From: Bdellovibrionales bacterium
Lineage (GTDB): Bacteria > Bdellovibrionota_C > UBA2361 > SZUA-149 > JAGRAN01
Assembly: GCA_020434585.1 (NCBI GenBank)
Contig: JAGRAN010000032.1
Coordinates: 11,013-75,012 of the forward strand
Direction: 5' to 3'
Length of the DNA: 64,000 bases
Position 1 is the first letter of the stretch. Each line of letters opens with the position of its first letter. The position numbers are program-made. Shown one piece after another: positions 39,001 through 45,000 of this stretch.

Positions 39001-42000
39001 AACGACGGCGCCTTAAAACCACTGCCAACGCTGCCGTGCATCCTCATTCCCGTGTCTGGCGGGCGAACTGACATTGTCGCGCGGTAGGTTGTCTCGCTGC
39101 CGAAATCGGAATCATCGTCGTAGCGTACGCCCCCGGTAAAGGTTGCCCATGGTGTCCAGCGCAATTGGTCTTCAAGGAAAAACGAATTCACTTGCCGTGA
39201 TTTGTTGAAGTTGCCGATATTTTCTCCCTTACGGTGTTCGTTGGTGTAGCCGAGAGTAATCGTATTCTCTTCTATCGGTTCTATATCAACGGCCGCCGTA
39301 GCACTGGTTGTTGTCTGTTTGATGTCGAAATTGTTGAATTCGGAGTCGGGGTCTCGGCCTTCAAGGTCCTCGTCGTAAATACCGAGTTCGACTCGAGGTA
39401 CGATATACTCTCCTAAAGACTTCGATGCAGTAAGTGAGCCGGTAAGCACTTCGCGTTTTTGGGTGTAGTTAAGTGCATCTACAGGGCCTACGCCGAATTC
39501 GAAATCATCGAGTTCAGTATCGCCTTTAATAAATCGAAAAGTTGCATCGGCGCGACCGTCTCCTAAAAAGTTTAAGCCGGTTCTAGTCGAGGCGGTAATG
39601 TTCTCATACTCGTCTCGTTCAGTATTGCCGTTTCTTTCGCTTGCTGCGGAAACGCCGTCTGTGTCGAAGTAGGTTATGCTATTGGCAGTATCAAAAAGCT
39701 CGTTGCCGTATCCAGCGTGCGCCCGATATTCATAGGTGGAGTGATTACCTGCTCCGGCTGATACAGCGGCGCTGGGTCCCTCGGCTGCCTTTCGAGTGAT
39801 TATGTTGATCACTCCGCCAATCGCATCGGAGCCATAAAGTACGCTTTGCGGACCACGTACAACTTCGATACGTTCAATGTTCGCGGTGTTAAGGTCAGCA
39901 AAATCGTAGCCGCCAACGTTCGCGTCGTTAGCTTTGACCCCGTCAATTAATACCAACGTCTGGTCGGTGTCAGCTCCGCGAATATAAACTCCGCTGACTC
40001 TACCTCTGCCACCGGACTGCGTAACGTCGACTCCGGGGAGCGAACGCAGCATTTCTATTACGCTGGTGCGGCGTGTAGCTTCAATTTGTTCGCGCGTAAT
40101 TAAACTTACACTGCTGCCGGTTTCTTCCAGTGTGCTGGGTGTAAGGTTCGCCGAAACTACAATCTCAGGTGTTTCTTCAGCAGCTGCACAAGTTGGCAGA
40201 GCGATTGCAATGCAGCAAGCAGCTGCACAAAAAGTATTTTTATATTGTTTCATGAGTGCCTCGATCCCTTCCCGCGAAGAGAGTTAGCGTTCGGTGCTGA
40301 TTGGCTCAGGTCTCCTGGCTTCTCGTCATCCTCGCACCCGCCTTCCCGAGCAGAAGCTCAGTGGCATGATTAGGCGCTCGTCAGAGTTACAGTTGCGCGG
40401 CAGCGTGGGATTTGCACCCAACTTCCCTTGTTCCAACGCAGTTCTCGCCGAACTTGGTTAGTATTGGTTCGAGAATTACCGCGACTTCAGCCAATATTCA
40501 AGAGAATAGCTAATATGGCTGAAAAACGGTCCAGAGAACTTAAAAAACCAGGTTGTTGGCGATGGCGGCTTCGCTTTTTAGACCATCAGGTGAATGCTTT
40601 GGGTGCTCGTGGTGATGATGGCCTGAACATGCTTTAGATTTGCAGCAAGTCATGCTGTGTAAATTCTTAATGTGTCCGATTATCAATAATGCCCCGCCAA
40701 AAGTAGTTAGCACTGCCTCCATTGAAAAGAGGTTATCGTCATGTCGTCCGGGAGCGAGCAGCGCGCCAACGACAAGCATTAGTCCTAAGCCAGCATAAAT
40801 AACAACGTCTTTTCTTCGATGCTGTTGGTAGCCTCGAGCAAACGCCAGTATTGTTACGAAGAGGAGCAGAACAGCGAATGCAATATGCACGGGAGTTTCC
40901 CCGGCGGTTACGGGGTCTAGTATTGGAAAAAACAACACCGCAATTGGCAGCAGCGCGCAATGCACTGCGCATAATGCCGAGAGAGCAATTCCCAGTTTGT
41001 CGATAATATGTGTATGGACCATCCGCGGCCTGATCGTTAATGATAATCTAGTTGCATTATCCTTTAACTGAGGAATAAAGTCAAATTTGCAGATGGCCAG
41101 AATTAAAAGAAGTTTTTAGGCTTTCCAGTCGGGATAGCGCTCGCAGCCGAAATAATATTCTGGATAAGCTTTGCGCTGAACAAATTCTGGAAGCAGACCC
41201 CACAGCCAATGTTCCTTAAGCTTAGCGTCTATCTCCTGTTCCATCGCGCTGCGGTCATAACTGAAGTCAATCTGCACATTGGTATCGACTCGGATAATGT
41301 TTAGTCGATCAGTGCCGCCAGTGCCCTTGCCGTCGGCGCAGCACACTACGAAATTGCCTTCAGGTGACCAGGAGACAAATCGATCGCACCCACTGTTTTT
41401 CGTAATGCGTTTTTCGCTCATTCCGTCACGGCTCATAACCCATACATCGGCATCGGCGCTTCCGTCGGAGCTCGAATTCTCGTCGGCTTCAGTTACAAAA
41501 GCGATTTGCGTCCCGTCGGGCGAATAGGCTGGATGAAAATCTCGAGCGGGGTGGCTTGTCACACGACGCTCTTTCCCCGTGCTTAAATCCAACTCATAAA
41601 TATCTTCGTTGCCTTCACGTGTAGAAGAGTAAAGCATATATCCGCCGCAGGGAGACCACGAAGGTCCAGCTTCCACGCCCGTATTCGAAGTCACGCGCTC
41701 AGGGCTTCCGCTGCCGTCAGCATTAACTACATATATGTCGATGTTTTCACCGTTATCGTAGTTAGCAGCGCACGCAATTTGCTTCCCATCCGGAGACCAG
41801 CAAGGTTCAGCATGAAACTTGCTTGAGTTGGTTAGTTGGCGTTGATTGCTGCCGTCTGCTCCCATCGTCCAGAGTTCGGGGATCCCGCTGCGATTAGAAA
41901 CGAAGACAATTTTGCTGCCGTCAGGTGACCATTTCGGAGCATCGTTCCAAGCGCCTCCGGTAGTAAGCTGGTGAAGTTCTTTTGACTCAATATTCAGGGT

Positions 42001-45000
42001 CCAAATATCGAAGTCTGTCTGCTTGCCCGATGCAAATACCAGCGTGCCCTTTGGTCTCATGTGTCCTCCCAGAACGTAAACGGTCCATCCAACTATCGGA
42101 AGCGATGACTTGGTACTTAAGTATTCTCCCACAAAAGCTAATTCGCAAGAGCTTAAGCGGTTTTCGAATAAACCTGAAGCTATTCCTGTTTCTTTTTGGG
42201 TTTGCCAGCAGAGGGTTCGCCAATCGAACCGAGGTGGCAGAACCGAGTGCCAGGAATCGCAACCGGATAAGCGGCTTTGCCGATCACAATACCCTCCTCT
42301 GGTACGTAGTATTCCTGAAGTTTACGGTCAAATGCGTCTCGGGTGATAGCGACGAGGTGCTTCTTCTGAAGCTTTTCGCCCAATTTGAAAGTCGTTTCGA
42401 GGATGCCGCCGCCAGTTGTGCGAAGCCATTTGGAGCTGTGGCAAACCACGGGTTTGGAGCTGCTCTCAATCTTTCCCTTAACCATTCCCAACAGAATCAT
42501 AATGTTTTGAATCGCTGCTTCTCCCTCGATTACCATTTTCCCTTGGAAAACGCTGGGATTGCCGGCCTCGATTGTTATCGCCGGAATTCCGCGGCGCCGT
42601 GCGGCGTTCCTTAAAGTGCCGCCTCCGTGTTTCGGGGAATGTAAGATGATGGCCGGGTTTGCACAGACAGCCAGCTCGCGCGTTTTGTCGTTCAGCCAGT
42701 CCGTGCGGACGTAAAAGGTATTCAAACGGCCTTCGCTGGCTGTGTGCAGATCAATTAGGTAGTCACAGGCGGGCAAAAAGGAAGAGGTAAATGCTCTAGC
42801 ATACTGCTCGGCGGGTTGGCCGTCCGGCTTGCCCGGGAAGACGGTATTCAGGTCAAGGCCGTCAGTGAAGTACCTCGATCCAGCATTAAAACCAGGGATG
42901 TTGACAATCGGGACGCAGAGTAGAGTTCCGCTCATGCTACTCAAGTCAACATTACGCAAGACGTGATGAATAATTCGAATACCGTTTAACTCGTTCCCAT
43001 GAACTGCCGCCGTAATGCCGAGTACGGGTCCGTCCTTGTGCCCCCGGGCGACGATGAACGGGACGCTCATACGGTTACCGGTTGCTCGCTCGTACATTGG
43101 TACATAAACGTCTGAACGTTCGCCTTTTGGAAACTTGGCAACGTTGATCGTTTGGTGGCGGCCCGTGCGCGGGCGAATTTCACAAATGTCTATTGTGGGT
43201 AGTTCTGTGGGTAGATCTTGGCTACTCAACTCTCAGCTCCTCAAGCAGCGGGGGGTCATCGTTCAGCGACATAAATGCTTTGGTCCTAAATTTTCCTTTA
43301 GATGTGAAAAGGGAGCAAGCCATCTTATCAACGGCACAAACGGCCATGACCGTCTGAACGTAGCCCATAATTAAGTCGTCGAGTCCGATCCCCAGGGAGT
43401 TAAAGTCCTTGCGATCCATCATAATCAAACGGCTGCTTTCAGTGTCCCAAGAGTCTGTGCCGGTCTTTATCGAAAGGTTAGTGCCCAGCATGTCCCAAGG
43501 AGCGGTGTCGCCGTTCAGATCGTTTCTTAACGGCGTTCTAGCTCGACGGCCGTAAACTGCAATTGGCCGAAAGCTTTGTTCTCCTCGATAAACCATCATT
43601 CTTAAATCAGCGACGTACAGCTCGTTGCGCTTATTGGGGACCGTGCCGACGTGATAGAATTTTCCAACGGTACCGTCAGAACTCCATTCGTAGTTGCCAA
43701 TTAAGCTCTGAACGATAAAGCAGTTATAGGGATAATCCCGTGCCATGAACTCTTCCAGCTGATTTGAGTCAGTGACGATGAAGACCCCTTGGCCTGCGTT
43801 GCTGTATGGTATCTTAATGACAGCGTGTCCGCCGAACTTTTGCACAACGAATGGAATTTCTTCCTTTTGGACGTCGCGCACGGTTTCGGGAATATGGATC
43901 GTAAGACCGCTTCCGCCGTACTGCGCGTTAAAGATTTCATAAGCCATGGCTGCGACCATCTTATTGCGCCCACCAGCTATGCAGGCGACAACCGGATTGA
44001 GTAGGGCAGTTTTGCTGTAAATCGGTATCCGGTTCCAAGGTTTCTGAGTGACGTAGCGAAAAGCAGCTTTAATCGGTGTCCATTCACCTGAGGGCTTTCT
44101 TACATACATCACTCCGTCGTCGTATTTAACTGGAGGGTCGTTATCTGAGTTGTAAAATGGGGCCAGCAAGACATCGCATTGGAAATGGTCGGCCATTGCT
44201 GCAGCGTAGCCGGAGTTCTCCATGTAGTTCTTATCGTAAACCACGGCCAGTTCGCCGTCTTTAATCTTGCTTGCTCTGAGCAGCGGAGCAAATGCTTCGG
44301 AAATTAATGTTCCGTAGCCGCCGTCTTCCTCATGATCGGAAAACAGCGGCATAGATTTTTGTCCTGATGGACAGGAGTTTGTTTCGATAACAACCATGCG
44401 TCTCAAACCGGCGGCAGTCGTTACCGAAAATAAATCCGCTCCAGCCCAGCGGAGGAATTTTGGCTCGTAATAGAGAATCTCCTCCAGTGCGTCCCGGTCG
44501 ACTCTGGGATTAAGGTGACAGAAACGCGTGGCTAGTCGGTCTGGACCCAAGCTCAGAAAAGACTTAACCATGGGGTGAATCGTGGCGTTTAGGACGCGGG
44601 TGTAATAATGGCGAACTGGTTCAAACGAACCAGGGGCAATTACTTCAACATCCTTCATGGTAGACGCTCTGCTCCGGCAGTTAAAGTCAGGACCTAGTCT
44701 ATTTGTCCCTCGAAAGCAGATTTGAAATCAAGACAAAACCTTGCAAACGGCGCGGAATAACCTGAAGCAGCAAAATAGAATGTGTATTGGGAATTATCTG
44801 TTTTCGTAATTGTAGACAATCCAGGCACAATCGTGCTGTAAACCGGTGTTATCGACGACTCCGGCAGGGATTACCAACTCTTCCCAGGTGCCCCCTTCGT
44901 CCCCCTCAGAGCCACCCGCGATGATGCAAGAACTGTAAGCGTAGCTCCAACCAGTAGCAAATTTGAATTCGCTAATCGCAACCAACGCAATTAGCGCCAT

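Follow-up and report, generated by a model that had tools for sequence, protein, structure and literature searches.

A predicted circularly permuted ATP-grasp protein family forms a conserved gene pair with an AstE/AspA-type zinc amidohydrolase

Introduction

In several described systems an enzyme that forms an amide bond is accompanied by a hydrolase, and the NAGGN ligase/peptidase operon is one example. Cyanophycin synthetase contains an ATP-grasp module. The AstE-family enzyme CphZ cleaves the cyanophycin-derived beta-Asp-Arg dipeptide and so offers a precedent for synthetase plus hydrolase (PMC9974463). Glutathionylspermidine/trypanothione synthetase-amidase (2io7, 2vpm), in which the hydrolase is a fused CHAP cysteine amidase, also indicates that such logic is workable (PMC2427367). 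Here we describe two adjacent genes in the genome of a Bdellovibrionales bacterium (GenBank assembly GCA_020434585.1, contig JAGRAN010000032.1, positions 11,013 to 75,012; this 64,000-nucleotide (nt) stretch is called the window below). Gene 1 encodes a predicted ATP-grasp ligase and gene 2 a separate zinc enzyme of the AstE/AspA type, and the two genes form a conserved pair.

Cassettes of ATP-grasp ligases and AstE-like hydrolases were reportedly discussed by Iyer and colleagues in 2009. In the literature we found no paper on the gene-1 family, although it may already have been noticed computationally. The E-x-N motif is C-terminal in classical ATP-grasps. Eukaryotic glutathione synthetase is the classic circularly permuted member of the superfamily (Polekhina 1999, as cited in PMC2213659), and the name CP_ATPgrasp for a permuted family is documented in PMC3597751, citing Iyer 2009.

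Results

Gene 1 is predicted to be a circularly permuted ATP-grasp protein

The gene-1 product was modelled with AlphaFold2 from an alignment (pLDDT 87.6, pTM 0.91), and residue invariance was scored over 32 sequences (alignment A1). The model predicts a circularly permuted ATP-grasp fold with its catalytic residues intact. It has the three-domain architecture of an ATP-grasp, and its elements run from a hairpin (residues 71-94) through a small alpha/beta domain (113-167) to the central domain, the E-x-N hairpin standing N-terminal to both the pre-ATP-grasp and the central domains. The E-x-N motif lies on the beta-hairpin 71-81/86-94, with D75 on its preceding strand, and the central domain holds K282 and the Gly-rich loop (285-292), then the hinge residue Q317, then D351-x-R353, R371 and N394. 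The E-x-N motif thus precedes the Lys/Gly-rich segment HAVIKIPYSNAGQGVF by about 190 residues. Roles of these residues, covering the Lys, Gly-loop, hinge and Mg2+-ligand positions, were assigned by motif analogy, without residue-level superposition.

Conservation of these positions was strict. D75, E92, N94, S95, P97, S98 and G99 were invariant in the 32 sequences, as were K282, N287, G289, Q290 and G291 of the Lys/Gly-rich segment, and Q317, D351, R353, R371 and N394 further on; altogether the invariant columns hold about 130 of the 478 gene-1 residues. In P0250, a homologue with 27% identity in which other conserved blocks are altered, D75, E92, N94, K282, the Gly-rich loop, Q317, D351, R353, R371 and N394 were retained, and the counterpart of the E-x-N segment reads IIELNSPPSG.

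Foldseek searches with the model gave best matches of near full length (409-448 columns). The top match was 3n6x (5.5e-9), which we take to be a member of the CP_ATPgrasp family, followed by the human, yeast and potato glutathione synthetases (2hgs, 1m0w, 5oes; 410-448 columns, E-values 9e-9 to 3e-6). Like gene 1, the eukaryotic glutathione synthetases carry E-x-N before the Lys/Gly-rich loop, but identity to them was 10-13% and TM-scores were about 0.4. The closest solved structure by fold was 3k1t, a putative gamma-glutamylcysteine synthetase GshA of Methylobacillus flagellatus, which shares 11% identity with gene 1 and was not recovered by a PDB profile search at E<=10. We presume that 3k1t belongs to the T. 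ferrooxidans-type GshA family, PF08886/TIGR02049.

Searches with hidden Markov models (HMMs) at the family level were negative. Gene 1 had no match in Pfam (E<=10), including the GS and CP_ATPgrasp_1/2 (DUF407) models, none in NCBIfam (E<=0.01), with nothing of the T. ferrooxidans GshA type in either collection, and no usable match in the PDB by phmmer or profile hmmsearch (E<=10). The Pfam scan at E<=10 also returned nothing for two of the three homologues tested, and the third (P0031) gave a weak RimK match (E 0.018) at the K-loop segment corresponding to HAVIKIPYSNAGQGVF. With fold and motifs in agreement and every family-level HMM search failing, gene 1 is best read, on the strength of its model, as a new family within a known kind, the permuted branch of the ATP-grasp superfamily. 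Judged in the same way, it would work like an ATP-grasp amidoligase. Among ten long family members scanned against Pfam, no informative fused domain was found; an AAA/RFC match in one long member was traced to a Trichinella gene-model fusion and discarded.

An N-terminal helical segment (residues 17-51) sets gene 1 apart from the eukaryotic glutathione synthetases. H17, H28 and H48 are invariant in it and C47 is nearly so, and it could be a metal site. We know of no such His/Cys segment in classical ATP-grasps.

Gene 2 encodes an apparently intact zinc amidohydrolase and is translationally coupled to gene 1

The gene-2 product belongs to the AstE/AspA family, scoring 125.4 bits against PF24827 (AstE_AspA_cat; cut-off 25). 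Its HGNE, DLN, FPG and DLHT motifs start at residues 77, 126, 131 and 160, and the H-E-H zinc triad and the catalytic Glu are present and align with the motifs of DoeB. Conservation reached 100% in 57 gene-1-linked homologues for the zinc ligands (H77, E80, H162) and also for R119 and E221. Because the zinc and catalytic residues are fully conserved, gene 2 is expected to be active, and we regard it as an apparently catalytically intact AstE/AspA-type zinc amidohydrolase.

The closest characterised relative was DoeB/EutE, the N-acetyl-L-2,4-diaminobutyrate deacetylase of ectoine catabolism (best PDB match 6twl, 2.5e-20, residues 54-318). Gene 2 nevertheless stayed below all NCBIfam equivalog cut-offs: 81 bits against 403 for DoeB (TIGR02994), 27 against 180 for aspartoacylase and 24 against 306 for AstE. 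Moreover, its N-terminus is about 20 residues longer than that of DoeB, and no ectoine genes accompany it. CphZ has the AstE/AspA family and the H-E-H triad in common with gene 2, but the CphZ-like structures 3fmc and 3lwu gave weak matches (1.9e-6 and 3.6e-4) confined to the N-terminal part, and neither CphA nor cyanophycinase is encoded near the gene pair.

Gene 2 is translationally coupled to gene 1. Direct reading of the sequence showed that the two genes share 8 nt (TTGAGTAG), and a GAGGAG ribosome-binding site (RBS) lies inside gene 1, 7 nt upstream of the gene-2 TTG (Table 1). The gene-2 reading frame is open from only 3 nt before this TTG, which is therefore the sole start that retains the conserved N-terminus. 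The identical TTGAGTAG/GAGGAG junction was found in L001, a homologous locus whose gene-1 product is 84% identical to that of the window. Where AstE directly follows gene 1, 14 junctions were examined, and in 12 of them the AstE start and the gene-1 stop overlapped, sharing either 4 or 8 nt. An earlier note on this DNA had pointed out the 8-nt overlap and the RBS, the HGNE, DLN..FPG and DLHT motifs of the second protein, and in the first protein a reversed motif order (VVIETNSCPSG, here placed at residues 89-99, ahead of HAVIKIPYSNAGQGVF, here at 278-293) that suggested a permuted ATP-grasp; all of these observations hold here, with structural similarity to ATP-grasps now found by Foldseek on the AlphaFold2 model.

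The gene-1 family is large, strongly conserved and reaches eukaryotes

The gene-1 family takes in upwards of 3,737 clusters at 90% identity; its profile matched 919 representatives at 50% identity (E<=0.001), and the bacterial members come from at least 593 GTDB species. Over the full length, identity was 55-62% among Bacteroidota, Bdellovibrionales-like bacteria and Dadabacteria. Members were also found in fungi, nematodes, a red alga and Fonticula, namely in Podila verticillata, Trichuris suis, Trichinella pseudospiralis, Cyanidium caldarium and Fonticula alba (P0121, P0156, P0153, P0126/P0276, P0176). Their scores with the bacterial profile range from 390 to 760 bits, and all are annotated as hypothetical. 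They show extensions of eukaryotic style as well as low-complexity inserts, and their scaffolds are large.

Gene 1 and the hydrolase are neighbours in several phyla

A total of 87 loci were analysed, and the 59 with at least 3 kb on each side serve as the denominator where a count is given out of 59; flanking open reading frames (ORFs) of at least 80 amino acids (aa) were clustered over 5 kb on either side of gene 1. Within 2.5 kb of gene 1, an AstE homologue was present in 43 of the 59 loci, a GshB-like ATP-grasp (GSH-S_N plus GSH-S_ATP) in 35, both together in 34, and a RimK-like ligase in 13. The linked loci span Bacteroidota, Myxococcota, Burkholderiales, Vulcanimicrobiota and Rhodothermales, and their arrangement varies from co-directional to convergent and divergent. 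In Saprospiraceae the order is gene 1, GshB-like, AstE, and in marine and Burkholderiales bins it is gene 1, AstE, RimK-like, GshB-like; in Myxococcota, AstE and GshB-like genes are convergent and face gene 1. That the linkage survived rearrangement over several phyla argues for a common function and against mere inheritance of synteny. Gene 1 and its AstE/AspA-type partner are a conserved pair.

This pairing separates gene 1 from its structural relatives. Unlike the 3k1t-type GshA, gene 1 has a conserved AstE-like partner, and CP_ATPgrasp_1/2, which is permuted like gene 1 and belongs to predicted peptide synthesis or modification systems resembling the present module, is partnered by Alpha-E and transglutaminase and not by AstE-like and GshB-like genes.

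With scores of 107-195 bits, the GshB-like partners fall short of the equivalog cut-offs for glutathione synthase (272-299), and for this reason they are considered paralogues and not bona fide GshB. The same scores speak against ordinary glutathione biosynthesis, in which gene 1 would be an alternative gamma-glutamylcysteine ligase, as its closest fold 3k1t might suggest, and the GshB-like neighbour the glutathione synthetase. Gene 1 also lacks any match in NCBIfam (E<=0.01) or Pfam (E<=10), both of which presumably include GshA-type models; glutathione synthesis has no need of a conserved AstE-like hydrolase, and the window has no GshB-like gene. The eukaryotes that bear gene 1 can be expected to own the standard glutathione enzymes already. 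Altogether this explanation seems very unlikely.

The associated GshB-like, RimK-like and double-Ddl ligases (the last found with Peptidase_S58 within 5 kb in 4/59 loci) suggest a biosynthetic pathway. They count against a salvage or catabolic order of events, in which the AstE-like enzyme would first split an N-acyl compound that the cell has imported, and gene 1 would re-ligate the amine or carboxylate so released onto another acceptor. AstE, AspA, DoeB and CphZ are all catabolic, sequential action would suit translational coupling, and no futile cycle would arise. But no transporter was consistently linked to the gene 1/AstE pair, and gene 1 mostly lies upstream of the hydrolase, so that we hold salvage to be rather improbable.

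Separately, one locus (L007, 4907..12335) contains in a single apparent operon a double-Ddl-like protein of 659 aa, Peptidase_S58, gene 1, AstE, a RimK-like and a GshB-like gene. The same six-gene cluster, with four ATP-grasp ligases and two hydrolases, was seen in L008, L009 and L067.

Polyamine genes (arginine decarboxylase, agmatinase, deoxyhypusine/homospermidine-synthase-like) were found within 5 kb in 12 loci. In L081 (6992..14221) they lie on one strand between gene 1 and the GshB-like/AstE pair, and in the Rhodothermales locus L074 (2598..10439) they are divergent from gene 1, AstE and GshB-like; they also occur near the gene-1 cluster in L013, L030, L062, L071, L077 and L078. Taken together, these loci with polyamine genes belong to Bacteroidota and one Rhodothermales genome. 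MscS channel genes were adjacent in 11-16 loci. In five of them (L037, L052, L063, L068, L076) an MscS-type gene begins 13-49 nt downstream of gene 1, these being Lewinellaceae/Phaeodactylibacter loci without AstE and GshB-like genes nearby, and MscS was found in about 10 others. The MscS adjacency may point to an osmolyte link. Fusions of GNAT and CN-hydrolase also recur among the flanking ORFs.

The flanking ORFs, screened down to a length of 80 aa and no further, included no recurrent carrier or substrate candidate. This bears on a protein or peptide tagging cycle, which is the main rival explanation because gene 1 is so unusually conserved. Gene 1 would here add an amino acid, for example Glu, to a protein C-terminus or side chain, and an AstE/M14-like enzyme would remove it, following the models of RimK acting on ribosomal protein S6 and of tubulin TTL/TTLL ligases opposed by CCP carboxypeptidases. 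However, the ligases of RimK-S6, TTL/TTLL-CCP and LysX-LysW-LysK are not permuted, unlike gene 1, and the latter has no conserved carrier or target next to it within the ORF size range screened. The characterised AstE/AspA-family enzymes, moreover, all act on small molecules, namely N-acyl or isopeptide-linked amino acids (succinyl-Glu, acetyl-Asp, acetyl-DABA, beta-Asp-Arg), and the surroundings of gene 1 consist of GshB-like partners, polyamine genes and MscS. We consider a tagging cycle unlikely.

The PD40 propeller is probably an unrelated bystander

A gene for a PD40 beta-propeller follows gene 2 in the window. Its longest ORF (41116..42132) starts with GTG at 42132, but the likely start is ATG 42060, which follows GGAGG and gives a protein of 314 aa in agreement with the 313-320 aa of its orthologues. 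The 72 nt upstream of ATG 42060 align with L001 in blocks and not in codons. With this start and without codon conservation before it, the gap to gene 2 is 119 nt, and the 47 nt given in the earlier note apply only to the longest ORF.

The propeller scored 129 bits with the PD40 model. With the TolB model TIGR02800 it reached 196 bits against a cut-off of 343, and only over profile positions 248-386, which cover the propeller. By inspection, its N-terminus MRPKGTLVFASGKQTDFDIW has no hydrophobic signal-like stretch, as the earlier note had also remarked. Lacking the TolB equivalog score, the N-terminal TolB domain and, as far as inspection shows, the signal peptide, the protein does not appear to be a TolB; it falls into an orthologous group of leaderless proteins of about 315 aa.

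Upstream of the PD40 gene, the block GCTCTTGC ... GAATACTTAAG is present also in L001, with block-like and not codon-like conservation, and it looks like an independent promoter. A consensus scan for promoters and terminators gave counts at or below shuffle expectation and did not flag this block, so a promoter is something that we infer here rather than a product of the scan.

A three-gene cassette, in which the propeller would serve ligase and hydrolase as, for example, a substrate-binding or scaffold subunit, could appeal to the adjacency of the three genes on one strand with no terminator-like site between them, and to the retention of the trio in L001 and L002. These two near-identical loci from close relatives are, however, the only ones of the 59 in which PD40 was found within 7 kb of gene 1. 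PD40 orthologues in three other genomes (45-61% identity) have neighbours unrelated to gene 1 or AstE, and the 119-nt spacer has its own conserved promoter-like block and RBS. A role for the propeller as a component of the system was rejected on its rare adjacency and the unrelated contexts of its orthologues; such a cassette is highly improbable, and the propeller is probably an unrelated bystander. Of the ligase, hydrolase and propeller cassette proposed in the earlier note, the first two members stand, being linked in most loci and often by stop/start overlaps, and the third does not, since its neighbourhood was not conserved.

Other features of the window

Immediately preceded by a cobalamin riboswitch (RF00174, 84 bits), genes for a TonB-dependent receptor, periplasmic binding protein, ABC ATPase and permease make up a B12-uptake operon that is distinct from genes 1 and 2. 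Between the CHAD gene and gene 1 the window contains, relative to L001 and L002, an inserted DUF6502 gene, of which a second copy was found 6 kb away, and an inserted ORF of 91 aa. This ORF has a GATMLEY motif reminiscent of an Flp pilin and gave no Pfam match. A 531-aa Arg-rich ORF proved to be the shadow of a true 427-aa multi-pass membrane protein in another frame, which is 78% identical to its L001 counterpart and has no Pfam family. Conversely, in L001 and L002 MerC is separated from the TonB receptor by Memo, radical-SAM and AMMECR1 genes (12057..14628), which are absent from the window. An anti-phage defence role was also considered and dropped, PADLOC giving no matches for gene 1, gene 2, the PD40 gene or the upstream ORFs.

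Table 1. Coordinates of the features discussed, as positions in the window
Feature	Position	Strand	Description
Gene 1	43222..44658	(-)	478 aa, ATG start; predicted circularly permuted ATP-grasp ligase family without Pfam or NCBIfam model
N-terminal helical segment of gene 1	~44506..44610	(-)	Residues 17-51
VVIETNSCPSG	44362..44394	(-)	Residues 89-99; E92-x-N94, predicted Mg2+-ligand motif
HAVIKIPYSNAGQGVF	43780..43827	(-)	Residues 278-293; predicted ATP-phosphate Lys K282 and Gly-rich loop
Coupling junction	43222..43242	(-)	GAGGAG 43242-43237, 7-nt spacer, TTG 43229-43227, gene-1 TAG 43224-43222
Gene 2	42180..43229	(-)	349 aa, TTG start; AstE/AspA-family zinc amidohydrolase
Spacer between gene 2 and PD40 gene	42061..42179	(-)	119 nt; promoter-like block GCTCTTGC ... 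GAATACTTAAG and GGAGG RBS
PD40 gene	41116..42060	(-)	314-aa stand-alone beta-propeller; likely outside the gene 1/gene 2 system
Cobalamin riboswitch	40308..40428	(-)	RF00174
B12-uptake operon	35795..40253		TonB-dependent receptor, periplasmic binding protein, ABC ATPase, permease
Extra DUF6502 gene and 91-aa ORF	44794..46018		Between the CHAD gene and gene 1
Membrane protein gene	47344..48627	(-)	427 aa, multi-pass
Arg-rich ORF	47198..48793		531 aa; shadow of the membrane protein gene
Second DUF6502 copy	51731..52546

Discussion

The evidence tips moderately towards genes 1 and 2 being a conserved synthetase/amidohydrolase module that acts on a small amide-linked product. Gene 1, as an ATP-dependent carboxylate-amine ligase, would turn a carboxylate into an activated acyl-phosphate for transfer to an amine, and gene 2 would hydrolyse an N-acyl or isopeptide bond, either in that small molecule or in one further down the pathway. 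The GshB-like second ligase, which most of the genomes have, would add a further residue. The module would in this way make and cleave, or deprotect, a small peptide of the gamma-glutamyl or N-acyl type, and candidate products are an osmolyte, a conjugate of peptide and polyamine, or a di- or tripeptide of gamma-glutamyl type. Gene context leans towards a small molecule rather than a protein tag as the product. We infer the small-molecule substrate as well as the relation between the two reactions.

Several observations weigh against such a module. In 15 of the 59 loci, neither an AstE nor a GshB-like partner was found within 2.5 kb, and the window itself, when searched, had no gene of the GshB-like, RimK-like, polyamine or MscS kind. 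The eukaryotic members have no operon context. Identity of 55-62% between phyla is atypically high for a secondary-metabolite ligase and could indicate a macromolecular substrate. HMM searches provide no link from gene 1 to any characterised ligase family, and the hhalign signal for the permutation was weak (E 0.018 and 0.056): its order was as expected, with residues 257-322 aligned to the K-loop/hinge region of the GshB-like neighbours at E 0.018, and it is not used as primary evidence. Finally, a ligase and a hydrolase acting on the same bond from one operon would run a futile cycle unless regulated, and for this reason the reactions of gene 1 and gene 2 may not be simple opposites.

More tentatively, and with considerable doubt, gene 1 and the AstE-like hydrolase, joined in most genomes by the GshB-like ligase, might constitute a pathway for an undescribed small peptide or peptide-polyamine conjugate, which could be a glutathionylspermidine-like thiol or a stress or osmoprotectant. 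Such a pathway, if real, would be common among Saprospiraceae, Myxococcota and related groups, and Mortierella-type fungi, trichinellid nematodes, Cyanidium and Fonticula would have kept or acquired its key ligase.

The gene-1 family is large and strongly conserved, yet it has neither a Pfam or NCBIfam model nor a solved structure. Its pairing with a zinc amidohydrolase, usually together with a GshB-like ligase, points to a specific undescribed metabolite, and the cultured hosts Portibacter lacus and P. marinus make the question testable. Should the product be identified, bacteria that abound in the environment may turn out to contain a new peptide, thiol or polyamine conjugate of low molecular weight, and orphan genes of parasitic nematodes and fungi would gain a function.

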